From a virus (taxonomy: Duplodnaviria; Caudoviricetes), in the IMG/VR virus record IMGVR_UViG_3300007735_000750, positions 1 to 51,044 of that record: a DNA stretch of 51,044 nt; one strand, 5' to 3'. This document shows, piece after piece, positions 1,877 through 16,148 of the stretch. The translations under genes were made by a program, and so were the position numbers. Under the pieces are notes generated by a model. It saw only the letters and a list, made by a program, of their open reading frames with translations. It made no database searches and was not told where the DNA came from. How positions within the stretch are numbered: position 1 is the stretch's first letter; each line of letters opens with the position of its first letter.

Positions 1877-1877
1877 T

Positions 1878-2057
1878 ATGACAAAGACCTATAAAGATCT
1901 ATTAAATAAACTTAAGAATATGAATGAGAGCCAATTAAATAGTGATATTACTATTATAGATACTGATAATGAATATCGTAGAGCCACTTTATTATTTACT
2001 GATGAATCCTGTGATGTTTTAGATGATGGACACCCAGTAATTACTGCCAGATATTAA
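1878..2057 (+). CDS. hypothetical protein (59 aa, MTKTYKDLLNKL...)
   Basis: AAGGAG upstream; open frame read by eye. Confidence 0.65.
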   Translation: MTKTYKDLLNKLKNMNESQLNSDITIIDTDNEYRRATLLFTDESCDVLDDGHPVITARY

Positions 2058-2092
2058 TTGACATAAAATTAATTTATATTATAGTTGAGAGT

Positions 2093-2548
2093 ATGAAGCT
2101 CATCAACACTACTAAATTATGTTCAACCAAATTAAAAGAAATAGTTAAATGGTGCTTGCCCCAAGGGTTAAACCTTAAAGATATTGGCAAGATTGATTTT
2201 GGCAACACTAGGTTAGGTTGGCATGGTAGAGCTTGGAGTGGTAGTATGAGAGCCCATATTGCTGTGCCAGAATATAAGAAGTATATTAAACCATATATTA
2301 GTGGTGGGTTCAGAGGATATTTACCAGTTAAAACATATAGCTGGGAAGAATCATTAATTGAATTAGTTGCCCATGAAATTAGACATATATGGCAATATAA
2401 GAAAAGGAAATTCTTCCATGGTATTAAGAAAATAAGAAAATATAACATGGGTACTAGAGCTAAATTAAGTGAAGTAGATGCTAGTTTATATGCTATGCGT
2501 AAGGTAAGAGAATACAGAAAGAATAATATTAAATTTGGTTTGATATAA
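2093..2548 (+). CDS. zincin-type (HExxH) metalloprotease-like protein
   Basis: LVAHEIRHIWQY motif, downstream E in SEVDA; promoter TTGACA-N16-TATAGT at 2058-2085. Confidence 0.65.
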   Translation: MKLINTTKLCSTKLKEIVKWCLPQGLNLKDIGKIDFGNTRLGWHGRAWSGSMRAHIAVPEYKKYIKPYISGGFRGYLPVKTYSWEESLIELVAHEIRHIWQYKKRKFFHGIKKIRKYNMGTRAKLSEVDASLYAMRKVREYRKNNIKFGLI

Positions 2549-2621
2549 GTTGTTGATTATTAAGGATTTATGTAGGGGCGCCTGGCCCCCCGCGCGCAAG
2601 TCGTTGATAATCAATGATTTA
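2546..2621. repeat. paired-palindrome element D1
   Basis: TAAGTTGTTG-ATTAT-TAAGGATTTA + 26-bp GC core + CAAGTCGTTG-ATAAT-CAATGATTTA. Confidence 0.9.
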
Positions 2622-2728
2622 CATATGATAGGATTATTTTTAGCAAAACGCCCAAACCTCTATGCTACAGAATCTTATGAGACGAAAAAAGATCTTGTCA
2701 GATTATAAAAGTGTGGTACTATTAATCT

Positions 2729-3586
2729 ATGGCTAGAACAACTAAACCCGCTCAAGATGTATACGATTTTGATGTGCATCAAGAGCCACTCCTCACAACT
2801 GACGGCAAGAGGACAGGATACTTCGGCATGGTGCGCCGTGACACCGCCGAACCCATTACGCTCGGAGTTTGCACCGAGCAGTATGGTGTGGTGAAGAATG
2901 CAGACCTCATCGAGATGGTGGAAAGCAACCTCGCCACTCATGGCAAGCTCTCGAATTACAATTCGAAGAAGTTCGTCGTGCGTGACGGTTCTCGTTTTTA
3001 CGCTTCCTATGACTTCCCCGATTTCAAAACGGAGTTGAAGCCTATGGGCAAGCGTGCCAAGGGAGACATTCTCGGCTTGCGATTGGTCGTTAACAATAGT
3101 TATGACCGCTCGTGCCGTGTTTCGTTGTCCCTCGGTTTCCTTCGTCTCGTTTGCACCAACGGCATGACCTCGCTCTCGAAGGAGTTCAGCATGACGAAGC
3201 GTCACACGCTTGCAGTCAATCTGGACTTCGTTGGCGATGCGTTGGCTCGTGCTACTGACAGCGTTGAGTCTCAAGCGCAAGTTTTTAACAAACTGGCGCA
3301 ACGGGCGCTCACTGACGAACAGGGCTTGAACCTGCTCACCAAGCTGGAAGAGAAAGACATTATCTCTGGCAAGGTGCGTGAGGGCATCGAGGCTGTTTGG
3401 CGCAACCCCGCTTATGAGGAGGATACGGATCGCAATCTGTACAACCTCTACAATGCGGCAACGCAATTCCTTACTCGCAATGTCTCGCAAGAGCGCTACG
3501 AGTACAGCGAGCGAGTCAACCGTGATCTGCTCAAAGTCTTCAGCGGCAAAACCCGTGACGAAGACCTCTTGAAACTGGTCGCCTAA
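2729..3586 (+). CDS. DUF932 family protein
   Basis: LGV...YGVVKN, LVVNNSYDRS, GFLRLVCTNGM, NLYNLYNAATQF motifs; promoter TTGTCA-N16-TACTAT at 2695-2722. Confidence 0.85.
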   Translation: MARTTKPAQDVYDFDVHQEPLLTTDGKRTGYFGMVRRDTAEPITLGVCTEQYGVVKNADLIEMVESNLATHGKLSNYNSKKFVVRDGSRFYASYDFPDFKTELKPMGKRAKGDILGLRLVVNNSYDRSCRVSLSLGFLRLVCTNGMTSLSKEFSMTKRHTLAVNLDFVGDALARATDSVESQAQVFNKLAQRALTDEQGLNLLTKLEEKDIISGKVREGIEAVWRNPAYEEDTDRNLYNLYNAATQFLTRNVSQERYEYSERVNRDLLKVFSGKTRDEDLLKLVA

Positions 3587-3609
3587 ACTAAAACCGCAAC
3601 TTTAACAAG

Positions 3610-3639
3610 TGCGAGGGGTAAACCCCCTCGCATTTTTTT
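3610..3639 (+). terminator. intrinsic terminator
   Basis: TGCGAGGGG-TAAAC-CCCCTCGCA followed by T7. Confidence 0.85.
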
Positions 3640-3658
3640 GCTCAAATTTGATGGATTA

Positions 3659-3734
3659 TAAGTCGTTGACTATTAAGTACTTACGTGGGGGCGGGGACAC
3701 CACCTTATGTAAACCTTTGATAGTTAAGTTTTTA
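3659..3734. repeat. paired-palindrome element D2
   Basis: TAAGTCGTTG-ACTAT-TAAGTACTTA ... TAAACCTTTG-ATAGT-TAAGTTTTTA, 51-bp offset. Confidence 0.85.
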
Positions 3735-3776
3735 TAAAAGCTTGACATTTTTAGAATTTATCTTATAGTTAAAAGA

Positions 3777-4118
3777 GTGAAGGCAAAACACAAAGTCTAT
3801 TACAATTTACATAAACATTGTTTAAGTATTATGCTCAAAGGAAAAGTATTAGAGCATAGTTCAGAGTTCTTTTTGAAAGATGTAGAGTTCAGAGTGAGCC
3901 AAGCAGGTAGATCCAGGGTCTTGAGAGAGAAGCGTAAGAATGTTCACGCATTTGTTTGTGGGCATCCAGACGATGGATGGCCAGTAGATCAGCCAGAGCG
4001 TAAAGTTACCTATAATCCTTATAAGTTTAATAGTTTTGTTTATGCAGACACCCTTGAGCCAGTATATAAAGCAAAGTGGGCTGGTGTGATTGGTCGTGAT
4101 ATTTTTGTCTTGAATTAA
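3777..4118 (+). CDS. conserved phage hypothetical protein
   Basis: VYYNLHK...VSQAGRSRVLREKRKNVHA...YNPYK motif set typical of a widespread phage family; promoter 3742-3769. Confidence 0.8.
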   Translation: MKAKHKVYYNLHKHCLSIMLKGKVLEHSSEFFLKDVEFRVSQAGRSRVLREKRKNVHAFVCGHPDDGWPVDQPERKVTYNPYKFNSFVYADTLEPVYKAKWAGVIGRDIFVLN

Positions 4119-4143
4119 ACTAAAAGTATAGTATAATCCTTTT

Positions 4144-4299
4144 ATGAACATAACAAAAGTAAAGAAGCTGGCTGAAGGTGGCTATGCTCTCTTTTCTATT
4201 GACCCTAAAACTAAACAAGAAACTCAAGTTGGCTATATGGGTGAAAACCTTGACCCTAAAGGCTGGCTTCCAGAAGGAGTGAAGATTGAAAATTCTTGA
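4144..4299 (+). CDS. hypothetical protein (51 aa, MNITKVKKLAEGG...)
   Basis: Promoter TTGAAT-N16-TATAAT (4110-4137) 6 nt before ATG. Confidence 0.7.
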   Translation: MNITKVKKLAEGGYALFSIDPKTKQETQVGYMGENLDPKGWLPEGVKIENS

Positions 4300-4645
4300 A
4301 GAATCTTTTACTAGCAAGGGATTCAAACTTCAGCAGGTAAAGCGTGATGGCGATGTCGCCATCTATAAGAAGCAACTCGATGATCCCGAAAGTCAAAACT
4401 ATCATTATGAAGTTGTCGCAATTAAGCGTCACAACGGATACGAGATTGCAGGCGTGAAGATGCCTCCCGCTGAAATGTATCCTAGCGATAGTCAATGGGG
4501 TGATTGGGCTTTCACTTGTAATTCAATCGAGGATGCTAACAAGCGTTTCGGTGAATTGCAGGAGAAACTAACAAACTACAATGCAACATCTATTCTGCCT
4601 AGTGGCGAAAAGCGTGGTCGTGGTCGTCCTCGCAAAATCGCTTGA
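4286..4645 (+). CDS. hypothetical protein with C-terminal AT-hook
   Basis: Ends KRGRGRPRKIA; AAGGAG upstream of TTG start. Confidence 0.75.
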   Translation: MKILEESFTSKGFKLQQVKRDGDVAIYKKQLDDPESQNYHYEVVAIKRHNGYEIAGVKMPPAEMYPSDSQWGDWAFTCNSIEDANKRFGELQEKLTNYNATSILPSGEKRGRGRPRKIA

Positions 4646-4676
4646 CAGAATATAAAAACCTATTACAATCACAACT

Positions 4677-4907
4677 ATGACCTATCATTGTGCAGTAAGT
4701 GGTGAGGCGATCCCTCCAGAGAGAGTCGAGGCTCTGCAAGTCCTTGGCGTTCCAGAGAGTCAATGGACTAAAAAAGAATATAGTCAAGTAAAGAAACTTC
4801 GTGCTGTGTATGCTGGTGATGATGGCAGTAATGACATCGTGATCTGCGACAAAGTTGATGGTGGCTCATTATTTGACAACGAAATCGTTGCGGAGGTAGA
4901 AGAATGA
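4677..4907 (+). CDS. degenerate TraR/DksA-like protein
   Basis: CAVSGEAIPPERVEAL resembles the CxxCGEPIPxxRLEAL zinc-finger start; promoter 4642-4669. Confidence 0.5.
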   Translation: MTYHCAVSGEAIPPERVEALQVLGVPESQWTKKEYSQVKKLRAVYAGDDGSNDIVICDKVDGGSLFDNEIVAEVEE

Positions 4908-5074
4908 ATGTAAGATATATCGTTTTGCGTGATGGTATTCGTGTTAGCGAGGATATGCACACCGATCTAAAAGAAGCTGAAGCAGAAGCTGACTTTTGGA
5001 AGAAGGTTATTCGTGCATGGCCAGACGGCACGAAGGTCGTGATTAAAAAGATTGGCTCGGATAGAAAAGCCTAA
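4904..5074 (+). CDS. hypothetical protein (56 aa, MNVRYIVLRDGIRVS...)
   Basis: ATGA overlap with upstream stop; GGAGG upstream. Confidence 0.7.
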   Translation: MNVRYIVLRDGIRVSEDMHTDLKEAEAEADFWKKVIRAWPDGTKVVIKKIGSDRKA

Positions 5075-5106
5075 AAGCGGAGGCCGATACTAGCTACGGA
5101 GCTGAT

Positions 5107-5200
5107 GCGAGGGTCGTCTAACTGGTTAAGACCCCACACTTATAATGTGGTCGCTCTAGATTTGGGCAAAATGCAGGTTCGAATCCTGCCCCTCGTACCA
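5107..5200 (+). tRNA. tRNA-Ile(UAU) with long variable arm
   Basis: Acceptor GCGAGGG/CCCTCGT, anticodon stem CCACA/TGTGG with loop CTTATAA, T arm GCAGG-TTCGAAT-CCTGC, encoded CCA, ~22-nt variable region. Confidence 0.9.
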
Positions 5201-5213
5201 ATCTTATTATATG

Positions 5214-5238
5214 TAAACCTTTGATGTTCAACCAATTA
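5214..5238. repeat. single copy of the 25-bp palindrome
   Basis: TAAACCTTTG-ATGTT-CAACCAATTA, 6 nt before -35 box TTGACT (5245). Confidence 0.7.
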
Positions 5239-5278
5239 TTTTTGTTGACTATTTAACAAACCATTGTATATTAAACCT

Positions 5279-5506
5279 ATGACAAACAACAAACCTCAAT
5301 GGGTAGCACCTAAGTGGACACCTTACTATACCAGAGTCGTCTTTGGTGAGCGTAGGGCTTACATTATGGATGCTAGTATTCGTGAAGCAACCAAGCAGAA
5401 CACTTATTCTTTACAAGACCTGTATCGAATCAGTAAAGCATTTAACCTTGCATTTAAGCTCGTTCCAGAGCCTAGTGAGTTTCCTACTGAGATTTGCTCT
5501 GCTTAA
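5279..5506 (+). CDS. hypothetical protein (start re-called to ATG 5279)
   Basis: Promoter TTGACT-N16-TATATT (5245-5272) 6 nt before ATG. Confidence 0.7.
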   Translation: MTNNKPQWVAPKWTPYYTRVVFGERRAYIMDASIREATKQNTYSLQDLYRISKAFNLAFKLVPEPSEFPTEICSA

Positions 5507-5513
5507 TTTTATT

Positions 5514-5585
5514 GGGCAAGTAGTTTAAAGGTGAAACCCTCGACTCATAATCGAGCTAGTGCTGGTTCGAGTCCAGCCTTGCCCA
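5514..5585 (+). tRNA. tRNA with CAU anticodon, probably tRNA-Ile2 (lysidine type) rather than Met
   Basis: GGGCAAG/CTTGCCC acceptor; CTCGA-CTCATAA-TCGAG; C4-G69 and C29-G41 pairs and GCTGG T-stem as in bacterial Ile2. Confidence 0.85.
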
Positions 5586-5599
5586 AGATTTAGAATAAA

Positions 5600-6112
5600 A
5601 TGAGAAATTGTTTAAAATGCGGGGATAAAATCCCTAATTCAATTAAAATTGGAGATAAGTATCATAATTTACAAAGGCGTAAATATTGTATAAAATGTTC
5701 ACCTTTTAAAGCTCACAATACAAAAAGAATTCACGAAAAAAGAGAATTAAGTCCATATGTAGCTAGAAACTATCAGAAACTAGATGAAGAAGGGAAGAAA
5801 ATCTTTAATAGATATTCTTATGAAAAAAGTTGTAAAAAGCGTAGAGATCAAAGGAAGAAAGATCTTGTGCTGATGTTTGGGGGTAAATGTATCACTTGTG
5901 GCTATGATAAAAATTTACATAATTTATGCTTTCATCATAGAGACCCAGAGGAAAAACTTTTTGAGGTTAATGTCCATAAACTAGCTAGTAAAAAATGGGA
6001 TACTCTAGTAGAAGAAGCTAAAAAATGTGATTTACTATGCTTTCATTGTCATAATGATTTACATTATCCAAATGGATTAAATTGGAAAAATGAAGAAGCT
6101 GGGGGTCGTTAA
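5600..6112 (+). CDS. HNH homing endonuclease
   Basis: CxxC pairs, GGKCITCGY, FHHRDP, CDLLCFHCHNDLH. Confidence 0.85.
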   Translation: MRNCLKCGDKIPNSIKIGDKYHNLQRRKYCIKCSPFKAHNTKRIHEKRELSPYVARNYQKLDEEGKKIFNRYSYEKSCKKRRDQRKKDLVLMFGGKCITCGYDKNLHNLCFHHRDPEEKLFEVNVHKLASKKWDTLVEEAKKCDLLCFHCHNDLHYPNGLNWKNEEAGGR

Positions 6113-6174
6113 CTCAATGGTAGAGTAGTTGCCTTTTAAGCAATAAGTTATAGGTTCGAGTCCTATACGACCCA
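6103..6174 (+). tRNA. tRNA-Lys(UUU)
   Basis: GGGTCGT/ACGACCC acceptor; GTTGC-CTTTTAA-GCAAT; ATAGG-TTCGAGT-CCTAT. Confidence 0.9.
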
Positions 6175-6220
6175 AAAAAAGATTTGACAAAAAAGCAAAT
6201 CCTGTTAAACTAAAAAAACT

Positions 6221-6616
6221 ATGAGACAAATCAAATTATACAAACAAAACCTCGGAGCAAATTGGGTTATTGGTATTGAAGGTTCCAAGGATAAAATTAT
6301 TCAATTTCACAACCGAGTATATAATTGGGGTGGAACAAATGGAAAACTAAAATGGATGTCTAAAGACTTTGCTTATTTTTGGATTACCCTTGATAGATTG
6401 GAGAGAGTGATGTTTAAGTATATTATGAATGGTATGACAGATAAACTTGGCAAAAAGTTTCGTGGAGCTAAAGGTGGTTTGAAAGAAGTTGTGTTAAATC
6501 GTGTGAGGAATACTATTAACAACATTCCTGTTGAAAATTTTGTTCGTACAGAGCAAGTTGAACCAACTTATTCTCTTGGACAAGTTTCGGCTGAAAAGCT
6601 GGACAGCGATAGTTGA
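6221..6616 (+). CDS. hypothetical protein, paralog family A
   Basis: FHNRVYNWGGTNGKL motif shared with 11229..11591 and 15032..15451; promoter 6184-6211. Confidence 0.8.
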   Translation: MRQIKLYKQNLGANWVIGIEGSKDKIIQFHNRVYNWGGTNGKLKWMSKDFAYFWITLDRLERVMFKYIMNGMTDKLGKKFRGAKGGLKEVVLNRVRNTINNIPVENFVRTEQVEPTYSLGQVSAEKLDSDS

Positions 6617-6622
6617 ACAATC

Positions 6623-6698
6623 CGCCTAGTAGTCCAATGGCAGAGACAAACGACTTAAAATCGTTCGAGTGTCGGTTCGAGTCCGACCTAGGCGACCA
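6623..6698 (+). tRNA. tRNA-Leu(UAA), short variable loop
   Basis: CGCCTAG/CTAGGCG acceptor; AACGA-CTTAAAA-TCGTT; GTCGG-TTCGAGT-CCGAC; A discriminator + CCA. Confidence 0.9.
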
Positions 6699-6705
6699 AT
6701 TTATC

Positions 6706-6778
6706 GCTCTCGTAGCATAGCGAATAATGCAATTGATTTCTAATCAATAGATCGCAGGTTTGAATCCTGCCGAGAGCG
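6706..6778 (+). tRNA. tRNA-Arg(UCU)
   Basis: GCTCTCG/CGAGAGC acceptor; ATTGA-TTTCTAA-TCAAT; GCAGG-TTTGAAT-CCTGC. Confidence 0.85.
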
Positions 6779-7005
6779 AGAATTTTTTCCCAAAAGATTT
6801 TTCTTTATGTAAGCTTTTATGTGAGATGGTATGAAAAGAATTTTATTTGGATTTTTATTTTGATGATGGCAGGAAGTATATCGTGGGGAGCAATAATCGA
6901 GTTAGTGAAAATTATAATTACACATATAAAATAATTTTTTCCTAAAATCACTTATCCCAAAAATAATAATTGAATTATTTCTCACTGCACTGTAAAATAC
7001 TATAT

Positions 7006-7167
7006 ATGAAGAGTGAAAATAGGATCAGCAAAATACTAGAGAAAAGAATTCTCAAAGATGAAGATCCTAAACTCATATCTCAAATAGATAAATATCTACA
7101 AAATTTAGAATTAGTTTTTGTTAAATGGGCCAAAGCTCATCCTAATTGGAAAGAATCAGAAGAATAA
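7006..7167 (+). CDS. hypothetical protein (start probably MKSENR...)
   Basis: C-terminal part of ORF-track 6970..7167; CTGTAA variant of the late motif upstream. Confidence 0.5.
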   Translation: MKSENRISKILEKRILKDEDPKLISQIDKYLQNLELVFVKWAKAHPNWKESEE

Positions 7168-7179
7168 TTTTAGCTTTTG

Positions 7180-7252
7180 TAAGTTGTTGATTATTAAGTA
7201 GTTAGGGCGGCGGGGACTCTCGCCGCGTAAGTCGTTGATAGACAACGAGATT
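7180..7252. repeat. paired-palindrome element D3 (48-bp offset)
   Basis: TAAGTTGTTG-ATTAT-TAAGTAGTTA + 23-bp GC core + TAAGTCGTTG-ATAGA-CAACGAGATT. Confidence 0.85.
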
Positions 7253-7292
7253 TATTTCTTGCAGAGAAACGAAACTATGGTATGATTATTCT

Positions 7293-7559
7293 ATGAACAA
7301 AATCAAAAACGCAATCATCTACGCAACCTCATTCATTAAGTATCTGTTCCTTTTCCTCGTAGGACAAAGGTATCTGATCGAATACAAACCCTACGGCGGT
7401 GAGCAGGTCTATACCTACATCATCGGCAAGCCTTCGTCTTATACGATCAGCAAGGCTGGCAACAAGTTGTTTACGACTTTTTGCTTCTCTGGTCGTATGG
7501 ATTCTGGCGTGAAGCAATTCCGCTATGATAGAATTACTGGTGGTCTCTCGCCAGTTTAA
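7293..7559 (+). CDS. hypothetical protein (C-terminal 'QFRYDRI' WYL-like signature)
   Basis: Promoter TTGCAG-N16-TATGAT (7259-7286) 6 nt before ATG. Confidence 0.7.
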   Translation: MNKIKNAIIYATSFIKYLFLFLVGQRYLIEYKPYGGEQVYTYIIGKPSSYTISKAGNKLFTTFCFSGRMDSGVKQFRYDRITGGLSPV

Positions 7560-7611
7560 CAACAGAGAGATTAGGGGGTTATTATTATCCTCCTAGTTTG
7601 ACATATAGAAA

Positions 7612-7638
7612 GGGCGAGGAGAAATCCTCGCCTTTTTT
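7612..7638 (+). terminator. intrinsic terminator
   Basis: GGCGAGGA-GAAA-TCCTCGCC followed by T-run. Confidence 0.85.
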
Positions 7639-7674
7639 ATTTGACAAATTATTAATTTATACTATAGTTATTAG

Positions 7675-8049
7675 ATGAAGGATATCGGCCCAAAATTAAG
7701 AGTTTATTTTAAAACTAAAGGTTATACCGATCTTTCTTTTTACAAATGGGACACCATAGAGAAACTATTTAATCTTCTTTGGGAAAATTCAACTTACTCA
7801 ATTACTATTGATTATTCTTATCTTGAAGAATCATTGAGGATACTGGATGTAAAAGGTTATAGAGGTAAAGATGGTTTATCTCTTGAAACATTCTTTCTTG
7901 CTAATAATGATTGGAACAGAATTATTACCATTTGGAGTTTTGTTTGTGATTTTATTCGAGATAATTCAGCATTAGAAGAAAAGGGCTCTGGTAGAATTCT
8001 AGTTAAATTAAGTAAAACTGATCGGATTGATTGCACTTTGATTGCTTGA
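7675..8049 (+). CDS. hypothetical protein
   Basis: Promoter TTGACA-N16-TATAGT (7641-7668) 6 nt before ATG. Confidence 0.75.
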   Translation: MKDIGPKLRVYFKTKGYTDLSFYKWDTIEKLFNLLWENSTYSITIDYSYLEESLRILDVKGYRGKDGLSLETFFLANNDWNRIITIWSFVCDFIRDNSALEEKGSGRILVKLSKTDRIDCTLIA

Positions 8050-8079
8050 CAATAAATTAGCATCTGATACTATTTAGAT

Positions 8080-8293
8080 AGTTCTTCGATATCAGAGAAG
8101 GTTGACCGTAAGGTTGCAGTTCTGGAAAGTTTCCAATGGCAACATTGGTTATATATAACGGAATGCCAATACTTCTCGCGCGAGTTTGACTAACTCCATA
8201 AGAGGATGAACCTGCCAACGCCCAGAGTCTGAGGCAAATTAAAAGAGCAGGGTATTTCCTTTACGAATCATGAGCGTAAAGGGTCGAAGAACT
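8080..8293 (+). ncRNA. unassigned ~214-nt structured ncRNA
   Basis: Own promoter TTGACA-N16-TACTAT (8046-8073); 10-bp closing stem AGTTCTTCGA/TCGAAGAACT then T7; several internal helices including two GNRA hairpins; no ORF. Confidence 0.75.
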
Positions 8294-8299
8294 ATTTTT

Positions 8300-8503
8300 T
8301 TAGAAGAAATTACTGTGTTCGCTTTTCCAACCTGTGCGGTGGTGAAAGTTCCAATCAAGAAGTGCCCATTCGAATCCTACATCTTTACCAGCTTTTTCAC
8401 TTTCAAGCCATTTGTGCTTTAATATTTCCTCACGCTCTTTGAGGAATTCTTGATATAACTTTGAGTTTTTGAATACTTGATCCATCTCGGTTTTACTTTT
8501 CAT
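8300..8503 (-). CDS. DUF4032-like small protein (host-like)
   Basis: LYQEFLKEREEILKHKWLESEKAGKDVGFEWALLDW motif, recalled from PVC bacteria; GTGTAA motif on - strand at 8525-8530. Confidence 0.7.
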   Translation of the reverse strand: MKSKTEMDQVFKNSKLYQEFLKEREEILKHKWLESEKAGKDVGFEWALLDWNFHHRTGWKSEHSNFF

Positions 8504-8589
8504 CAAATACAATTCTAAATTAGATTACACTAAATAGCAAATAGTAATTGATAAATAGATAAATATCTAATATAATAATACTACATATT

Positions 8590-8661
8590 GGGGCTATCGT
8601 CTAATGGTTAGGACGGAGGCCTTTCAAGCCTCTAGTATCGGTTCGAATCCGTTTAGCCCTA
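8590..8661 (+). tRNA. tRNA-Glu(UUC)
   Basis: GGGGCTA/TAGCCCT acceptor; GAGGC-CTTTCAA-GCCTC; TTCGAAT T-loop. Confidence 0.85.
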
Positions 8662-8735
8662 AGTATTTGATTATCAAGTATTTACAAAAGTGAGTGGACC
8701 TATGCTTCTATAAGTCGTTGATATTCAATGAGATT
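8660..8735. repeat. paired-palindrome element D4
   Basis: TAAGTATTTG-ATTAT-CAAGTATTTA ... TAAGTCGTTG-ATATT-CAATGAGATT, 51-bp offset. Confidence 0.9.
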
Positions 8736-8775
8736 CTTTTGTAGACAAAAAGAAAAATCCTGATATATTTATCTT

Positions 8776-9609
8776 ATGAAAGTTAACGAAATTATCACAG
8801 AAAAATTCATCGAAGCCCTCAACAATGGAACTTGCCCTTGGCAAAAGCCTTGGAAAGTTTTTGATCTCTGCAACGGTATTTCAAAAAAGAATTATAGGGG
8901 CATCAACCAATTTTTGCTGCGTATGGTTTCTTCTGACGACTTTTTCTTTACCTTTAACCAGATTAAAGAACTTGGAGGAAACATCAAGAAAGGTGCTAAA
9001 GCTCATCTCGTAGTTTATTACAAGCTGCTAAAGAATAAAGATGATGAAAGCACTGGTTTTCCTATGATGAGATATTACAAAGTCTTTGGGTTGAGTGATG
9101 TCGAGAACATCAAATGGAAACAGCCCGAAGTGAAAAAACTCGATTTTTCTCCAGTAGAAGAAGCAGAGAAGTTGATTAACAAGTGCATTATTAAGATCAA
9201 GCACGGCGGAAGTCGTGCCTGTTATTATCCGCAGGAGCATAAGATCGACCTACCTCCAAAAGAAAACTTCAACAGCGTTGAGGAGTATTACTCCACTGCG
9301 TTTCACGAGATTGGTCACGCTATGCACAAGGCGACCAACGATGAAGTGAAGAACGGATTCGGTTCACAGAATTATAGCAAAGAAGAATTAACAGCAGAGA
9401 TTTTTGCTAGTCTCTGTCTTAACTTCTGCGGAATTGATTCTGAAAAATGTTTCAACAATTCTGCGAGCTATCTTTCGAGCTGGCTCCAAGTATTAAAAAA
9501 GGATATGAATTTTATTATTTCAGCTTCTAGTAAAGCACAGAAAAGATTTGACGTTTTCCTTGGTAAAAAAGAAACTGAAGAAGTTATTGAAGAAGCTGTA
9601 ACTGCTTAA
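8776..9609 (+). CDS. ardC: ArdC-like antirestriction / ssDNA-binding protein (DUF1738 + zincin domain)
   Basis: PWQKPW, NYRGIN, TFNQIKELGG, YYSTAFHEIGH, YSKEELTAE, ASYLSSWL. Confidence 0.85.
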   Translation: MKVNEIITEKFIEALNNGTCPWQKPWKVFDLCNGISKKNYRGINQFLLRMVSSDDFFFTFNQIKELGGNIKKGAKAHLVVYYKLLKNKDDESTGFPMMRYYKVFGLSDVENIKWKQPEVKKLDFSPVEEAEKLINKCIIKIKHGGSRACYYPQEHKIDLPPKENFNSVEEYYSTAFHEIGHAMHKATNDEVKNGFGSQNYSKEELTAEIFASLCLNFCGIDSEKCFNNSASYLSSWLQVLKKDMNFIISASSKAQKRFDVFLGKKETEEVIEEAVTA

Positions 9610-9674
9610 GCATCAAAGAGTTACAGAAGGGGATCTCCTTCCGCTTCTCTAAGTCATTGATATTCAACGAGATT
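9599..9674. repeat. paired-palindrome element D5
   Basis: TAACTGCTTA-AGCAT-CAAAGAGTTA ... TAAGTCATTG-ATATT-CAACGAGATT, 51-bp offset. Confidence 0.8.
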
Positions 9675-9724
9675 TAAATGTAAAAAAAACTTGTCACAAG
9701 AAAAAAAAGTGTTAGAGTTTATTT

Positions 9725-10360
9725 ATGTTCAAAAACAAAAAGCAAGCCGAAGCTATTGTCGGCACACTATCTAAACCTTCGAAGATGCCAGGTTATGCCT
9801 ATTCAACGCCAGCCAAGCGTTGTCTTATCGGACAGAAAATGCGTAAGGTTGCGGGAAGTATTTGTGCGTTCTGCTACGCTCTCAAAGGGCGTTATGTTTT
9901 TAAGAATGTTCAAGAGGCGATGGAAAAGCGTTTTGCTTCTCTTACCAATGATCTTTGGGTTGAGGCGATGTCCTATTTGATCGGCAAAGTTAAGAATCCC
10001 CATTTCAGATGGCACGATTCGGGAGACATCCAAGGCGTATGGCATCTTCAAAAGATTGTGCAGGTTGCTAAAAACCTTCCGCATATTTCTTTTTGGTTGC
10101 CAACTCGGGAGTATGCTTTCGTTTCAGAGTATATTGAAAAGGGCGGTGAGGTTCCTTCTAATCTCACTATTCGTCTTTCTGCTCTTATGATGGACGGCCC
10201 TGCTCCTGTTGGCATCGCTCAACGCCTTGGCCTTGTTGTTAGTGGTGCGAGTAAAGTAGGAAACTTTAATTGCCCTAGCTCTAAGCAAGGTAACAAGTGC
10301 GCTGATTGTCGTGCGTGCTGGGACAAAAATCAGTTTGCAATTAACTACAAAAAGCATTAA
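9725..10360 (+). CDS. GP88-like (phage gene 88 family) Cys-rich protein
   Basis: LSKPSKMPG, CAFCYALKG, FRWHDSGD, FWLPTRE, CADCRACW. Confidence 0.8.
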   Translation: MFKNKKQAEAIVGTLSKPSKMPGYAYSTPAKRCLIGQKMRKVAGSICAFCYALKGRYVFKNVQEAMEKRFASLTNDLWVEAMSYLIGKVKNPHFRWHDSGDIQGVWHLQKIVQVAKNLPHISFWLPTREYAFVSEYIEKGGEVPSNLTIRLSALMMDGPAPVGIAQRLGLVVSGASKVGNFNCPSSKQGNKCADCRACWDKNQFAINYKKH

Positions 10361-10430
10361 GATGTCACCTTATGGACAACTTAACAATTTTAATCATCAT
10401 CGGTATTTTTGTATCATTCCTAATCTATAA

Positions 10431-10583
10431 ATGAAAACAATTAAAGACATCCTATCAGAAAACGAAGAAACTTTTTTTCCGTGGACTGATAGTGAAAATC
10501 CTCCACTCGATGCAAACAAAAATTTTGTTCAATGGGATAAAGAAATTGACGAAGTTTTTGAGGGTTGGCGAGCCTCGATGTAA
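10431..10583 (+). CDS. hypothetical acidic protein (50 aa, MKTIKDILSENEE...)
   Basis: Read by eye; its stop TAA is the first triplet of element D6. Confidence 0.6.
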   Translation: MKTIKDILSENEETFFPWTDSENPPLDANKNFVQWDKEIDEVFEGWRASM

Positions 10584-10656
10584 GTCTTTAATTATCAACT
10601 AGTTACGCAAGGGGGACCACCGCCCCCGCCGCAAGTTGTTGATAGTGAACTACTTA
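10581..10656. repeat. paired-palindrome element D6 (convergence point of the two early blocks)
   Basis: TAAGTCTTTA-ATTAT-CAACTAGTTA ... CAAGTTGTTG-ATAGT-GAACTACTTA, 51-bp offset. Confidence 0.9.
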
Positions 10657-10766
10657 CGCTTACGCTGATAAAGCCATACAGCAAAGTTGATAAGAGTTTC
10701 TAATGTCACGAGAGCGAGGAAAAAAATTCCAAGCCCAGCGATTGATAGCATATATTTTTCTATCAT
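10650..10766 (-). CDS. small membrane protein (MIEKYMLSIAGLG...)
   Basis: C-terminal part of ORF-track 10650..10979; one TM helix and basic tail; follows the stop of 10768..11037. Confidence 0.55.
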   Translation of the reverse strand: MIEKYMLSIAGLGIFFLALVTLETLINFAVWLYQRKRK

Positions 10767-10767
10767 A

Positions 10768-11037
10768 TTATTCTCCGCAGAAGTTTTCGTCACCTGCCCA
10801 GCCGAAGTCTTCCATCTGGTAGCACCCGCCACCATAGTCTTCGTCTGTGCCATGGCCAGCCGATGCCATAGCAGAATCAAAGTCGCCGTCCATCGAGTCG
10901 TCCACATCAGAAACATCTGATGATTTAGAGAGAGCGAGACGATCATCCTCACGCATCTCGTTGAGGATATCACGCACATCCTGCGAGCCCAACATATGTT
11001 GAGCCATCCACTCCTTGAGTGATGCTTTGTAGTCCAT
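10768..11037 (-). CDS. acidic hypothetical protein (MDYKAS...)
   Basis: DGDFDSAMASAGHGTDEDYG motif; GGAGG upstream. Confidence 0.7.
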   Translation of the reverse strand: MDYKASLKEWMAQHMLGSQDVRDILNEMREDDRLALSKSSDVSDVDDSMDGDFDSAMASAGHGTDEDYGGGCYQMEDFGWAGDENFCGE

Positions 11038-11038
11038 A

Positions 11039-11206
11039 TTATTTGACCTCCACGATGGTATCAGCTTCATCAAAGCTGGGAGCCATCTTATCCAGCATTT
11101 CGTTGATTACATCAGGGGAATTGATGTAGTCGAAAAAAGCCTCCGCATCAGAGAAGGCTTCGGTGCAGTTAATCGAGGCAAGGTATGAGATGTCGTTGTT
11201 GTTCAT
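11039..11206 (-). CDS. hypothetical protein (55 aa, MNNNDISYLASIN...)
   Basis: Promoter TTGACA-N16-TACATT (11240-11213) 6 nt before ATG. Confidence 0.7.
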   Translation of the reverse strand: MNNNDISYLASINCTEAFSDAEAFFDYINSPDVINEMLDKMAPSFDEADTIVEVK

Positions 11207-11228
11207 ACGACTAATGTATCACAGATTA

Positions 11229-11591
11229 CTATTCTGTCAAAGATTTTCTGCAGGAATATTCTATTGAATGACAACGCCTTACAAAAGTTGCTGGCTTTAT
11301 TTCTGAAATGATTTGATCTGCTAGAGCTTCGCCCTGAGAGTCCCAGTTGCCCTCACCCAAAGAGGATTCAAGATTGTTTGAGAGAGCGAGAGCTAAAGCT
11401 CTGCGAAACTTCTCTGGCTCTGCGTAAAAGTAAAATGCTTTTCCACTTCCTCTATCTTGCAATTTGTAATTCGTTCCGCCGAAATTATAAATAGCATTAT
11501 AAAATCTTTCAGCAGATAGGAAATCAGCCTCAATCAAATAGGCGAGGTTAGGGCCAAAGGGTTCGCTAAATATTTTTATTTTGTTTTGCAT
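11229..11591 (-). CDS. hypothetical protein, paralog family A
   Basis: FYNAIYNFGGTNYKL...FYFYAEPE; promoter 11625-11598. Confidence 0.8.
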   Translation of the reverse strand: MQNKIKIFSEPFGPNLAYLIEADFLSAERFYNAIYNFGGTNYKLQDRGSGKAFYFYAEPEKFRRALALALSNNLESSLGEGNWDSQGEALADQIISEIKPATFVRRCHSIEYSCRKSLTE

Positions 11592-11631
11592 AAAAAAAGG
11601 ATATCAGATTTTTTTATTTTGTCAAGCATTG

Positions 11632-11707
11632 TAAGTCGTTGATAGTCAAGGACTTGCGCGGGGGGCGGTCGGCGTGCTTGCGTAAGTCGTTGATAACCAA
11701 TTACTTA
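11632..11707. repeat. paired-palindrome element D7
   Basis: TAAGTCGTTG-ATAGT-CAAGGACTTG ... TAAGTCGTTG-ATAAC-CAATTACTTA, 51-bp offset. Confidence 0.9.
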
Positions 11708-12016
11708 GAAACCATACAGAAAAAACCTAGCGTCAAGAAAGAATTTCGAGAGAAAGTAGAAAAATTTTTCTGTCTTATAGTTTTTATTTTCGCCATTTGA
11801 AACGGCGAGAGAGTAGCAAACTTTTCCAGAGCGGAAAAGAAAGTTGCGGATTGTGTTTTTGTGTATTTTGTATTTGTTCATTTCGTAATTTATTTTTGTT
11901 ATAGTTTCTTCTAGTGTTCGCAGGATAGCCATAATCCTATAAAAAGAAAATGTATGCTCCCACCAACCTTTCTTTTTGGTGAGAGCAACCCGCAAGCCTT
12001 GCGGATAATTGTTCAA
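11705..12016 (-). CDS. hypothetical protein (start uncertain)
   Basis: ORF track; stop lies in the last triplet of D7. Confidence 0.5.
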   Translation of the reverse strand: MNNYPQGLRVALTKKKGWWEHTFSFYRIMAILRTLEETITKINYEMNKYKIHKNTIRNFLFRSGKVCYSLAVSNGENKNYKTEKFFYFLSKFFLDARFFLYGF

Positions 12017-12207
12017 TTATACGCCCACTCGCTTGCTTCTTCCTCAATCTCTGCTTCTATACTTGGCCACATATGGTCAGGAATCATATAGTTTCGGTTG
12101 AGGTGTTTAGTCTTTGCGATATGGAGAGCTTGCCCAAGACTTCCGAGAGCTTCACTCCCGAAGTAAATTTCTTCTTTTAACTTTTGGATGTTTTCAGTTA
12201 AGTCCAT
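12013..12207 (-). CDS. hypothetical protein (MDLTENIQ...)
   Basis: AAGGAG upstream; C-terminal part of ORF-track 12013..12312. Confidence 0.6.
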   Translation of the reverse strand: MDLTENIQKLKEEIYFGSEALGSLGQALHIAKTKHLNRNYMIPDHMWPSIEAEIEEEASEWAYN

Positions 12208-12208
12208 T

Positions 12209-12628
12209 TTAGTCTCCTTTGTATTGTCCACCGCTGTTATACGCTTCGTGGATTCCATTTGAGATTCTTTTAGAATCCGAAACTCTTTCCAGAAGCTCTT
12301 GAGTTGCTTCAACTTTTTTGATGTCGAAGTATTTTCCAGCAGAGGTCAAGAGAGTATATCCTCCGTTGAGATTCCAAAACATTAGTTTCTTGAGGAAAGG
12401 AAGGTTTGAGTAGTGATCGTTTTCGGTAGCATCAGCATACCAAATTTCCGTTTCGATTGTCTCACCAGTTATTCTCCAGTAAGACTTGTAAGAGAGTTGG
12501 ATAAAGTCTCCAGCTTCTATGTTGAGGGAACGAAAAGTCTCAATGGCTTCTGCTTCCTTGCGAGCCGATTCTGCTCTGCGTTGTTCGAGTTCTTGTTTCA
12601 GTTGTTTCATTTGTTCTTTCTTTGTCAT
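12209..12628 (-). CDS. hypothetical protein
   Basis: Promoter TTGACA-N16-TAGATT (12662-12635) 6 nt before ATG. Confidence 0.75.
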   Translation of the reverse strand: MTKKEQMKQLKQELEQRRAESARKEAEAIETFRSLNIEAGDFIQLSYKSYWRITGETIETEIWYADATENDHYSNLPFLKKLMFWNLNGGYTLLTSAGKYFDIKKVEATQELLERVSDSKRISNGIHEAYNSGGQYKGD

Positions 12629-12650
12629 ACCTTTAATCTATCACACTTTC

Positions 12651-12839
12651 CTATTTTGTCAATGATTTAAATTTCGTTGATTTCAACAACTTAGGACTTT
12701 TTCCATTTAATTTTGCTTTGAGTAGAGCGTGAGCCCTAGCTTTTTCTGGATTATTTTTTTTCCATTCAGCCCAACGCTTGCGAAGAGTTGCCCACTTGCG
12801 TTGATTGCTTTCGATTCTTTTGATATCGTCTTGATTCAT
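12651..12839 (-). CDS. basic hypothetical protein
   Basis: ORF track, co-oriented with neighbours. Confidence 0.6.
   Translation of the reverse strand: MNQDDIKRIESNQRKWATLRKRWAEWKKNNPEKARAHALLKAKLNGKSPKLLKSTKFKSLTK
12670..12693. repeat. single variant copy of the palindrome
   Basis: AATTTCGTTG-ATTT-CAACAACTTA next to the -35 box at 12657-12662. Confidence 0.65.
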
Positions 12840-12859
12840 TTTATTTACTTTCTTTCTGT

Positions 12860-13108
12860 TCAGGTTGCATTGGCAAGGTTGATAGTTCCAACCTTTCCTT
12901 TGTCCTCACCTTCGAGGATTTCACCAACCGCAATCAAAGGATACGGATTGATTGAATTTACTTGAGAAACTTTGACCAAGTTTCCTTCGTAGGAATAAAT
13001 TTTTCCTACGATTTCTTTATTTTGTTTATCGAGCTTTTCAGCGTAAGCACGCATATTTTCACGCATTTGTCTGCGGTGAAAGTTCCAGTTTATCATTCTA
13101 TGTGTCAT
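12860..13108 (-). CDS. hypothetical protein, paralog family B
   Basis: HRMINWNFHRRQMRENMRAYAEK shared with 14056..14187. Confidence 0.7.
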   Translation of the reverse strand: MTHRMINWNFHRRQMRENMRAYAEKLDKQNKEIVGKIYSYEGNLVKVSQVNSINPYPLIAVGEILEGEDKGKVGTINLANAT

Positions 13109-13236
13109 TTTCTATTACCTTTCTTATTTTCTTTCTTATCTTTCATACCTTTAATCTATCACACTTTACAAAAAAGTCAAGAGCGGAAAATGAGGTAGAA
13201 GATTTTCTTATTTTATTATAAGATTTTATTATGAGA

Positions 13237-13312
13237 TAAGTATTTGAATATCAAGGGGTTACACAAGGAAAGCGGGGGGCGCTTACGTAAGCTGTTGGTA
13301 TTCAACAACTTA
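13237..13312. repeat. paired-palindrome element D8
   Basis: TAAGTATTTG-AATAT-CAAGGGGTTA ... TAAGCTGTTG-GTATT-CAACAACTTA, 51-bp offset. Confidence 0.9.
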
Positions 13313-13324
13313 CTCAAGCTAAGT

Positions 13325-13702
13325 TCAGAATGGAATAAACTTTATTTCTTTGGATTGTTCTAGATATTTTTCAGAAGGTTTGAAAAAGATTACTTTCTCA
13401 AAAACTTTTTCTGTCGTCACATCATCTGGAAGCGAAGCGAAGTCTCCGTCTGGAGTCGCACCAACTAGCAGAGCTTTTCCAGCATAAGGCTGTGAGTCGA
13501 TTCCAACCTTGAAGTATCTTTGAGATTCTGAGTCTTTTAAGAGTCCCTCATCATCAAGAATCATATCAACACCAAATGCTGAAGTGATTGTGATGAGGTC
13601 GCACCCCAAAAGTCCATAGATGGTTTGGAGTTTTGTGTCCACAAGCATAACCTGTGAGACTGTTTCGGTGAATGGGTCGATGAGGATAGCTCGCACCATC
13701 AT
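13325..13702 (-). CDS. DUF3846-like protein
   Basis: AILIDP, LQTIYGLLGC, LDDEGLL, PYAGKALLVG. Confidence 0.7.
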   Translation of the reverse strand: MMVRAILIDPFTETVSQVMLVDTKLQTIYGLLGCDLITITSAFGVDMILDDEGLLKDSESQRYFKVGIDSQPYAGKALLVGATPDGDFASLPDDVTTEKVFEKVIFFKPSEKYLEQSKEIKFIPF

Positions 13703-13876
13703 TAGATCTTCCTCGTTTCGAGTAGGTTGCTCAACTCTGCGAGGTAAACTCCAGCGGTGAGGTTGTATTGTTTAGCGTTTAGGTCTTTGATGATATTCAC
13801 CAAGTTGGACGCCAACTCGATGATCTTGTCATTGGTATTGTTCATTGGTTTAGATTATCTCCTTTTGTAGTTTTTG

Positions 13877-14059
13877 TCAAACACCAAATTTGTTTCGGTA
13901 TTGATTGTAGAGGTTTTGGTATTCTTCGCCATTTTGGGCGATGATTTCGTGAATCTCGTTATATTCTTGCTGACCTTTTCGGTAGTAGTAAGAATCATCA
14001 CTCATCATATAAGTCCAATCGTGAGCTTTTAAGAGTTGTTCGAATTGTTCTAGGTTCAT
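13877..14059 (-). CDS. hypothetical protein (HDWTYMMSDD motif)
   Basis: ORF track; ATGA-coupled to upstream ORF. Confidence 0.7.
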   Translation of the reverse strand: MNLEQFEQLLKAHDWTYMMSDDSYYYRKGQQEYNEIHEIIAQNGEEYQNLYNQYRNKFGV

Positions 14060-14187
14060 TTCTTTTCTTCTTTCTTTTCTGATTGTTTCTTTTCTTGTTC
14101 GCGTTTAGCTTGTTGCTTTTCAGCATAAGCGCGCATTTGTTCGCGCATTTGTTTTCTCTGGAAGTTCCAGTATACCATTCTGTGCAT
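14056..14187 (-). CDS. hypothetical protein, paralog family B (43 aa)
   Basis: MHRMVYWNFQRKQMREQMRAYAEK... read by eye. Confidence 0.65.
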   Translation of the reverse strand: MHRMVYWNFQRKQMREQMRAYAEKQQAKREQEKKQSEKKEEKK

Positions 14188-14408
14188 TGTCTTATCCTTT
14201 CTTAAGAGTTTCGATTTCGTCCATTTTGACGATGATTTTTTCCATCCGCTTTGCGGATTCTTGATAACCCTTGGTAATTTCTTCCAAGCGTTTAATTGTT
14301 TCGTTGAGGTCGAATTTAATTTTGATTTTTGTTTTCATTTTTTTTCTTCTTTCTTTCTACCTATAATCTATCACATTTTTTATTTTTTGCAAGATATTTT
14401 TTCATTTA

Positions 14409-14484
14409 AATTTCATTGACCATCAACGATTTACAAAAGCAGAGAGGGCGTAGCTTGTCTAAGTCTTTGATATAGAATGATTTA
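14409..14484. repeat. paired-palindrome element D9
   Basis: AATTTCATTG-ACCAT-CAACGATTTA ... TAAGTCTTTG-ATATA-GAATGATTTA, 51-bp offset. Confidence 0.85.
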
Positions 14485-14562
14485 GATCTTTTGCTTTCCA
14501 TCAGGTTTTGTTGGAAGATCGGATTCGATCTTTTGCCTTCGTTCAGGTTTTGTCTAAAGATC
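14485..14562. repeat. 36-bp imperfect direct repeat x2
   Basis: GATCTTTTGCTTTCCATCAGGTTTTGTTGGAAGATC (14485-14520) and GATCTTTTGCCTTCGTTCAGGTTTTGTCTAAAGATC (14527-14562). Confidence 0.85.
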
Positions 14563-14573
14563 ACGAACTTTTA

Positions 14574-14649
14574 TAACCATTTATCTATTAAGTATTTACA
14601 TACGCACTGGCCCACGCCCTTGCGTAAATCGTTGGTACTTAACGACTTA
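14574..14649. repeat. paired-palindrome element D10
   Basis: TAACCATTTA-TCTAT-TAAGTATTTA ... TAAATCGTTG-GTACT-TAACGACTTA, 51-bp offset. Confidence 0.8.
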
Positions 14650-14654
14650 CAGAT

Positions 14655-15032
14655 TCACAAACGATAAAACTTGTGATTGCGAATTATCGCAACAGTCACT
14701 TCGCCCTTTGACCATTTAGGCGATACTTGGAATGTGTGATAATGATTCGCACCATTTACAACATCGGGCATTCGTTTCTCTGCTACAAGTTTGGCAAGAC
14801 GGATCGCGTTGCTTGCTTGTGGGTTCTTTAGAAGTTCCTGCTTTTTCGCTTCACTCACACCACCATTCCAGAAGCTGAATTGTTTTGGTGCAAGACAGAC
14901 TTCCGTGGCTGTTTGCTTGCGTTCAATGGCTCGTGTCTGAATAACAGAGGCAACGCCCGCCATTCCCTCAAAACCTTCGCCCCTAGCCTCACCTAGTAGC
15001 GTTAATGCTATAACAAGTATTTCGGCTGTCAT
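14655..15032 (-). CDS. SleB-like cell wall hydrolase (Hydrolase_2)
   Basis: TLLGEARGE, VASVI..R, KQFSFWN, GANHYH, PKWS, HKFY. Confidence 0.85.
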   Translation of the reverse strand: MTAEILVIALTLLGEARGEGFEGMAGVASVIQTRAIERKQTATEVCLAPKQFSFWNGGVSEAKKQELLKNPQASNAIRLAKLVAEKRMPDVVNGANHYHTFQVSPKWSKGEVTVAIIRNHKFYRL

Positions 15033-15451
15033 TAGTCTCTCCCCGCGCTAATCGCCCCGCAGTAGTCGCTAGGCTTTTCTGCTGTGATGCTTCCAAGGTT
15101 ATAGGTATCGCCAGCTTCCGCTGTGCGAAGAAAGCGTCCTTCCTTGAAGGTGTCGAACTTGTCCCGCGCTTTCCGCTTCGCAAGGTTGAGCAATCCGCCT
15201 TTCATTCCCTTTGCTTTAATCTTATTGCATAGGGCATAGAGAGCGACCTTGACCATAGCTTCTAGCACCGCTTCGGGCTGTGCATAGAAGTAAAAAGATT
15301 TACCATTACCCATATCGTGTAACTCGCCATTAGTTGCGGAGTAGTTATACATCGCATTGTGGAAGTTTTCGATCTGTGCCTTGTCGCCTTCCAAGAGGAA
15401 AGCGGTAGTGTTGCCGAAGGGTTGAGTGGTGATTGTGATTTGGTTTTTCAT
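15032..15451 (-). CDS. hypothetical protein, paralog family A
   Basis: FHNAMYNYSATNGEL...FYFYAQPE. Confidence 0.8.
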   Translation of the reverse strand: MKNQITITTQPFGNTTAFLLEGDKAQIENFHNAMYNYSATNGELHDMGNGKSFYFYAQPEAVLEAMVKVALYALCNKIKAKGMKGGLLNLAKRKARDKFDTFKEGRFLRTAEAGDTYNLGSITAEKPSDYCGAISAGRD

Positions 15452-15575
15452 ATTGTTTATAGTTTGCCTTTTGGTTTATGTTTCGTCAAGTGCTAGTTTT
15501 TAGCGGTAGCCATTGCGTAGATTCCGATTAAGAGACTGCCGATAGTAAGGGCAAAAATGATTTCGCTAGGGTTCA

Positions 15576-15731
15576 TTATTTGTTCTCCATATATTTTTGA
15601 TTGATGGCCTCGATCTTCTCGGCGTGAGCTTCGAGGGTTGCGACAGCGTGAGCCGAAGCATCCTTGAGGTCTTGGGCTGCTTTGTCGAGGTTTGCGATCA
15701 GTTGTTCGAACTTGTTTAATTTCTTCTTCAT
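15576..15731 (-). CDS. coiled-coil hypothetical protein (51 aa), first gene of the leftward block
   Basis: Promoter TTGTGC-N16-TAGATT (15765-15738) 6 nt before ATG. Confidence 0.65.
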   Translation of the reverse strand: MKKKLNKFEQLIANLDKAAQDLKDASAHAVATLEAHAEKIEAINQKYMENK

Positions 15732-15782
15732 GCTCTTAATCTATCACAGATTAGGATTAGCACAAGGGTTTTTTTGCATTTA

Positions 15783-15807
15783 AATTTCATTGATAGTCAA
15801 CGACTTA
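15783..15807. repeat. single copy of the palindrome (rightmost)
   Basis: AATTTCATTG-ATAGT-CAACGACTTA. Confidence 0.8.
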
Positions 15808-16148
15808 GGACTTTTGGGCTACCCTATCCCCTTTTATTTTGCAGATGACCACCCCATTTTTGAAAAAATCAGACGAACAGAGATTGCAAAACCGTCGAGG
15901 GGGTACTATCTTCAATCTCCATCAAATATTATACTATTTATATTACTTATTTATCTTATCTATATCTTATCTCTATATATAACCTTATTTAAATAATACA
16001 ATAAACAGCTTAATATCTATCTTATCTAACTTATACTATATACCCCTACTCCTTTTTTAGAAATCTATAAAAAATCAATAATAAGAAATATCCTTAAAGG
16101 TCAAAATTTCCAGGGGGCTATTTTTGCTAATAGGTCTTTTATATTTAC

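Follow-up and report, generated by a model that had tools for sequence, protein, structure and literature searches.

Why does a large phage repeat, ten times among its early genes, an element in which two palindromes enclose a GC-rich core, and what acts on this element? The stretch that raises the question, referred to here as the window, is the 51,044-nucleotide IMG/VR record IMGVR_UViG_3300007735_000750, a 51-kb portion of the genome of a large uncultured phage from a lake. Early small genes, the DUF932, ArdC and GP88 genes and six tRNAs come first in the window, and PhoH, sigma factor, terminase and head genes make up its second part. From sequence comparisons, we give about even credence to the reading that the element is a protein-built control site for early transcription and that cassette shuffling is secondary. 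A preliminary description of the window had proposed an architectural or recombination system comparable to integron attC arrays; its architectural and regulatory side was supported by a palindrome of the integration host factor (IHF) type, by helical phase and by conservation of the array, but its integron-like side was not.

The ten elements were found at every start position claimed for them, and the second palindrome starts 51 bp after the first in nine of the ten. In the element at 7180 it starts 48 bp on (at 7228), and the element therefore measures 73 bp instead of 76 bp. When the window was searched with a degenerate palindrome pattern (≤ 2 mismatches), 21 matches were obtained, compared to 0.52 expected and a maximum of 3 in 100 shuffles. 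Nineteen of these lie in 2546–15807, as expected from the reported confinement to the early region, but two weak matches lie in the late region, where none had been seen. Two of the three reported solo sites (5214 and 15783) are full 25-mers, and the third (12670) is a 24-bp variant with two rather than three middle bases, scoring 7.7 bits with our position weight matrix (PWM). The layout of the element is a 36-bp arm, a variable centre and a second 36-bp arm. As geometry this agrees with the single imperfect inverted repeat originally described, but complementarity between the two arms falls short of that in arms paired at random (0.569 vs. 0.612). The proposed C-n-n-AAG frame of the core was partly right: in 25 cores of the 51-bp type, both strands counted, C1 is present in 82%, A4 in 82% and G6 in 96%, but A5 in 62%. 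The elements and solo sites are as follows.

2546..2621, element 1: palindrome, 26-bp core, palindrome; 51-bp spacing; overlaps the stop of the open reading frame (ORF) 2093–2548, with the –35 box of the DUF932 gene 73 bp downstream
3659..3734, element 2: 51-bp spacing; TTGACA 7 bp downstream
5214..5238, solo palindrome: –35 box 6 bp further on
7180..7252, element 3: the sole 48-bp-type copy in the window; its core resembles those of 48-type relatives, and it was probably imported
8660..8735, element 4: 51-bp spacing; adjoins tRNA-Glu, 6 bp ahead of the promoter of the ArdC-like gene
9599..9674, element 5: 51-bp spacing; overlaps the ArdC stop, with the GP88-gene promoter 16 bp further
10581..10656, element 6: 51-bp spacing; plus- and minus-strand gene units converge there, and no promoter role is evident from its surroundings
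11632..11707, element 7: 51-bp spacing; 6 bp from a minus-strand –35 box
12670..12693, solo 24-bp variant: directly before a minus-strand promoter whose –35 box starts at 12662
13237..13312, element 8: 51-bp spacing; 56 bp from a minus-strand –35 box
14409..14484, element 9: 51-bp spacing; 16 bp from a weak minus-strand –35 box
14574..14649, element 10: 51-bp spacing; weak left palindrome
15783..15807, terminal solo palindrome: 17 bp upstream of a weak minus-strand promoter, with a conserved non-coding block after it

Among 400 half-sites chosen with the window-derived PWM and read toward the core, 334 fit WATCAANNNNTTR with at most one mismatch. A2, T9, A17, T23 and T24 are present in 399–400 of them, and position 25 is either A (333) or G (67) and no other base. 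The palindrome agrees with the IHF consensus WATCARNNNNTTR in both directions. Its TT/AA steps at 8–9 and 17–18 are 9 bp apart and symmetric around its centre, and we take these steps to be where IHF would kink the DNA. With one kink at the AA step, either orientation gives kinks at 8|9 and 17|18; the palindrome would therefore be one symmetric site for an IHF/HU-type dimer and not two sites. The essentially invariant T9 and A17 lie in these steps, so that a step pair at the kink positions may be a further likeness to IHF sites. The upstream A-tract of IHF sites is lacking, and a mirrored second consensus occupies that place. IHF bends its sites by ~160 degrees. In published work, IHF is described with the same consensus, a 35–40-bp footprint (~35 bp) and two kinks 9 bp apart, and IHF sites such as lambda H' share with the elements the final A/G and the phasing upstream of promoters (PMC9519438, PMC5829579). 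Unlike such sites, the elements are symmetrised, are arranged as head-to-head pairs and keep a fixed spacing around a coded GC core, and they form an array of 10–14; no integrase was matched in the complete relative of this phage.

The palindrome was also found in bacterial chromosomes, where pairs are spaced at 44–46 or 62–66 bp around AT-rich cores, mostly in Bacteroidota and beside housekeeping genes (one integrase and one transposase among 112 neighbouring ORFs). Single palindromes were found in 12 of 151 genomes of the phylum of an Opitutales metagenome-assembled genome, compared to 0 for the reversed control, and one chromosomal single copy lies directly after an apparent tRNA 3' end. 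Its presence in bacterial chromosomes makes a chromosomal protein of the host the likely binder of the palindromes. Two genomes of the Opitutales phylum (G116 and G121) carry 11–12 exact single palindromes apiece, a possible clue to the host lineage.

A sigma70-type early promoter lies directly downstream of the elements, except elements 6 and 10. We examined 224 sites with a promoter model built solely from element-free promoters, and in 92 of the 111 scored sites the –35 box lay 6–7 bp (73 sites) or 16–17 bp (19 sites) beyond the palindrome. Of 71 flank families, 11 have a promoter no more than 50 bp away, and all 11 show the 6–7 or 16–17 bp gap; the distance between palindrome and –35 box was constant across spacing types. 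The early promoters at 564–15765 have a 16-bp spacer (TTGACA-16-TATAGT/TAGATT) and not one of 17 bp, as do those of the cultured Stenotrophomonas phage DLP6.

The array was present in 31 of 32 loci fetched with the GP88 protein. Duplicate contigs were taken out ahead of the counts, and L172 is without any element. In the complete relative G001 (171,916 bp), every paired element lies within 124.8–136.4 kb (~12 kb of 172 kb), and four unpaired above-threshold sites lie outside this stretch. Scanning viral contigs with a pattern gave a list of 147 stretches with paired palindromes, of an estimated ~470, and the spacings of 129 distinct listed pairs cluster at 36–39, 41–42, 46–53, 57–60 and 64–66 bp. 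Two distant relatives, G009 and G010 (~40% protein identity), share this layout but use core motifs of their own. In G009 (L601, 2000–13700) the cores are built on CCAGG/CCTGG words, a Dcm-type site. A family with 58-bp spacing (L002–L006, L061–L065 and others) has the core GACCCC-GAA/TTC-GGGGTC, a strong mini-hairpin, in contrast to the clade of the window.

Core length and core letters vary together by strain. In 357 elements from 68 contigs, the spacing was 48 (263), 49 (31), 50 (26), 51 (24), 47 (11), 46 (1) or 52 bp (1); thus, the 51-bp spacing seen in the window does not hold as a general rule. The spacing was expected to be conserved in homologues if it served an architectural role, and it differs among strains (46–52 bp) yet is uniform inside a strain: same-contig pairs with at least one non-48 member shared their spacing in 156 of 252 cases, compared to 3.9% in shuffles. 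Within-genome core likeness was 0.578 vs. 0.550 (reached in 0 of 2000 permutations), the palindromes showed no such excess, and the core signal lay at positions 34–36 and 41–42, no more than five bases from the centre. The core motif of the 48-type is GCAGGG-W-CCCTGC or CC-T-CCCTGC, while a CWG centre was found in 20 of 27 50-type cores vs. 1 of 247 48-type cores. For the longer types, the centre was the best-fitting place for the additional bases (72 elements). The 49/50-type contig L176 has an element whose core equals the L150/L158 core plus one central A, with flanks 98–100% identical. Cores diverge faster than flanks (0.82 vs. 0.96), and non-48 types emerge on several branches: L171, the nearest relative of the window by terminase and portal (95–97%), is 48-type, and two further 51-type contigs are likewise close to the window in late genes. 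The genes between elements move freely among types, which implies a putative trans-acting selector. These comparisons suggest that a putative strain-specific protein likely reads core length and centre letters.

We infer the binders, fold and function of the complex as follows. At each palindrome, the DNA would be bent by an IHF/HU-type dimer of the host, and the GC-rich centre flanked by these bends would be recognised by a putative strain-specific protein. With footprints of 35 bp, ~13 bp of a 48-type core would remain uncovered, a length that matches the GCA-N7-TGC motif, and two U-turns ~4.5–5 turns apart would give a zig-zag fold. The complex would abut the –35 box or act as a roadblock between units, and in this way shut off or insulate early genes as an operator or stoperator does. 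Specificity would diversify by competition between co-infecting relatives, in which strains that escape the factor of a relative are favoured. Cassettes would be exchanged at the centre mostly via the shared central motif, which offers short GC-rich homology, and cassette shuffling would thus be a by-product.

Several observations weigh against this control-site reading. The conservation of the half-sites is inflated by their selection with the window-derived PWM, and a PF00216 (IHF/HU) gene was not found in three relatives, so the bending protein must come from the host. In addition, the Verrucomicrobiota-like PEP-CTERM/PATR protein of the window hints, as a lead only, at a host in Verrucomicrobiota or Planctomycetota. 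No gene tracked the spacing type among well-sampled genes within ~10 kb (area under the curve ~0.5 in 60 contigs, with a 70% majority rule that left out L157 and other mixed contigs), whole-contig comparisons gave no clean candidate for the strain factor among the matches listed, and a Mantel-type scan and trees of four late genes yielded nothing clean for it either. Elements 6 and 10 and many upstream halves are without an adjacent promoter, and the 6-bp gap may derive in part from common descent of element-plus-promoter units. Moreover, joins focused on the centre (described below) suit a cutting enzyme equally well. The two 50-type contigs carry a second sigma-70-like gene (L580:6807–7397, minus strand) with 87% mutual identity, compared to ≤ 68% with the 48-type contigs; as a candidate strain factor it is a weak lead, with n = 2 and a block that is generally alike.

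An unlikely alternative is that the elements are site-specific cassette joints, in which a putative enzyme cuts and rejoins the centre between 36-bp inverted arms containing an IHF-type site, with a strain-specific stagger of 0–4 bases. Element-bounded cassettes are gained, lost and moved among relatives, as had been proposed: L157, L160 and L168 show single-gene insertions, and a block of four to five genes is relocated in L170 and L174. Recombinant-plus-parents triplets place the switch at the centre for 6 of 13 junction types, compared to 1.18 expected (P = 0.00036), and with relaxed thresholds for 8 of 19 (1.68 expected). Pooled votes change over at position 36|37, bases 33–36 still go with their own flank (+0.141, confidence interval 0.077–0.206), and the junction type joining L169:9396 with L170:13360 has zero shared bases at the switch. 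The placement of additional bases at the centre in longer types also favours cassette joints, as does the likeness to the minicircle junctions of the insertion sequences IS2, IS3, IS30, IS21 and IS256, which also have abutted inverted arms of ~36–42 bp and a short element-specific spacer, 1–2 bp in IS2 (PMC3299598). However, unlike for these junctions, no transposase was recognised among the G001 ORFs (150 + 30 Pfam and 80 PHROG scans). A search for a recombinase elsewhere in the genome had been suggested; no tyrosine or serine recombinase was recognised in G001; PF00589 was matched in 0 of 3 relatives (one of them complete) and PF00239 in 0 of 5. An enzyme of another family or from the host possibly acts on the elements, and RecA, a PD-(D/E)XK exonuclease, endonuclease VII and ligase are present. 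Of 23 junction types whose parents were chosen blind to the core, seven were split inside it, nine carried the whole core and seven were unclear; GCAGGG or TCCCTGC microhomology accompanies most core splits, and the one case that could inform on both sides was unclear. Gene-order breakpoints, predicted to fall at elements, showed no enrichment there: adjacencies were broken at 0.50 at elements, 0.56 at promoter-only and 0.52 at unmarked junctions, a comparison that rests on noisy ORF calls. Joints such as 2616–9650 were rejected as excision circles in the contig data, having 28 other letters and being the elements of other strains. A combined version, a widespread phage system in which host IHF-type bends would present the central code to a phage enzyme that cuts and rejoins the DNA at that point and each strain would rewrite its 0–4-base centres, seems to us similarly improbable; if it is true, the array is both a cassette-shuffling machine and a self/non-self mark against co-infecting relatives.

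We consider it quite unlikely that the host alone accounts for the array, with IHF/HU bends that insulate or boost early promoters by supercoil pinning or anti-silencing and a core that is a stiff GC-rich ruler tuned to the host species. This account would fit the lack of any phage gene that tracks spacing type, the faster divergence of cores than flanks and the pinning of plectonemes by IHF in simulations (PMC9519438), but not the type-specific centre letters (CWG; CCAGG in G009) nor the scarcity of one half-core pairing, seen 2 times compared to 18 expected, which together argue that the core sequence is read and not only measured. A role in DNA entry, packaging or replication, in which bending would compact or pace the first-injected DNA near a possible genome end, is more doubtful still. 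The array is limited to ~12 kb of 172 kb, right-arm transcription begins beside the conserved non-coding block, and the first-step region of T5 is rich in repeats (bioRxiv 10.1101/866236); however, contig ends showed no clustering at that block in a genome-end test by contig starts, promoter phasing is left unexplained, and spacing is independent of terminase and portal, as the 48-type L171 shows. Least probable of all is that the elements form single-strand hairpins like those of integron attC or PeSL and serve in this form as signals for recombination or termination. Single-stranded DNA folding did beat shuffles in 7 of the 10 elements (z < –2.3), but the core folding z had a mean of –0.2, and complementarity of the arms, within cores and within palindromes was at or below random pairing; with arm complementarity no higher than this, it is not hairpins that are conserved. 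In addition, only tRNAs matched Rfam. Without hairpin selection, breakpoint excess or a recombinase recognised in the complete relative, the integron-like interpretation fails, and the hairpin explanation is already largely refuted.

The control-site reading can also be set against known repeat systems. The repeats between integron cassettes are attC sites, and the BIME-1/RIP of E. coli is an IHF site in a composite repeat, in which one IHF site lies between two REP hairpins, the reverse of the element layout. Stoperators are asymmetric sites of 13 bp. Unlike attC, the elements show no hairpin selection, no noted GTTRRRY boxes and no integrase. Like the elements, the PeSL sequences of T4-type phages are dispersed between genes of a variable region, lie before early promoters and accompany small-cassette exchange; a PeSL is a terminator stem-loop plus a promoter, with crossovers near the promoter (PMC2839356, PMC4122927), whereas the elements have neither hairpin selection nor a terminator-like stem-loop, protein sites dominate in them and joins cluster at the core. 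The stoperators of Cluster A mycobacteriophages are also many dispersed sites with a genome-specific motif, and motif and repressor diverge together (PMC6550527). Unlike stoperators, which belong to temperate phages with a known repressor, the elements have a coded part that is IHF-framed and variable in length, and no repressor or integrase was found. The element is thus distinct from attC and PeSL in the features that define them, and is assembled from known parts.

A further likeness was found in DLP6, which carries 15 clusters of tandem AAATCAACGACTTA boxes 25–26 bp apart, 13 of them preceding a –35 box by 11–12, 21–22 or 32 bp. As in the elements, the same AATCAACGACTTA box is paired and helically phased before sigma70 promoters; unlike in the elements, the boxes are tandem direct repeats, one-sided, 25–26 bp apart and followed by a GC hairpin. 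The DLP6 paper describes 'phage promoters in groups of two' with no mention of IHF, and six of the box positions coincide with those it lists (PMC5349666); we infer from these listed positions that the boxes are the published paired phage promoters. In the literature, a search with the motif led to DLP6 and to a primer from an ICEclc paper. One element compared by BLAST with cultured phages yielded only chance hits, and no description of the element was found in the literature searched, whose coverage excluded subscription journals. These comparisons suggest that large integrase-less phages co-opt a host DNA-bending protein to organise their anti-defence and early island. The strain-wide switch of core length and letters, running from 47 to 51 bp, amounts to a natural lock-and-key series; it points to a putative fast-evolving DNA-binding or DNA-cutting factor and gives ready controls for finding it, and DLP6 offers a culturable phage-host pair for testing the simpler tandem version.

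Other features of the array region are listed below.

2729..3586, plus strand, DUF932 gene: single gene between elements 1 and 2
8776..9609, plus strand, ArdC-like antirestriction gene: one-gene cassette, lost or replaced in L169–L171
9725..10360, plus strand, GP88 family gene: anchor for fetching relatives
14485..14573, conserved unit: 89 bp here, 77–126 bp in relatives; two GATCTT...AAGATC repeats

The DUF932 gene showed no association with spacing type, and its structure model (pLDDT 87) had no fold match in the PDB (TM < 0.2). In relatives, the 14485–14573 unit lies in varying places between elements 152–199 bp apart and resembles a gene-less cassette; it is possibly a small RNA or a protein site. 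The non-coding block at 15850–16130 contains CCCCATTTTTGAAAA, then GGGGGTA 47 bp later and further C/G runs. In the relatives shown, its place is to the right of the final solo palindrome, and it is a candidate origin, pac site or genome end.

Three paralogous ORFs lie inside the array (6221–6616; 11229–11591 and 15032–15451, both minus strand); none had a Pfam hit, and the one searched against the Atlas, of 139 aa, had no hit there. The C-terminus of a 119-aa ORF at 4286–4645 is the AT-hook-like KRGRGRPRK, whose match to Pfam PF02178 (E 0.08) stayed below the cut-off. A small antisense ORF (8300–8512, minus strand) within the plus-strand arm is conserved in most relatives, and short ORF or promoter units are duplicated in the right arm (12860–13108 and 14056–14187). 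The window also contains two HNH/endonuclease genes (5600–6112 and 26524–27159). A Zn-ribbon-like ORF (27307–27732) precedes the late sigma factor and is far more variable than its neighbours (28–85% identity).

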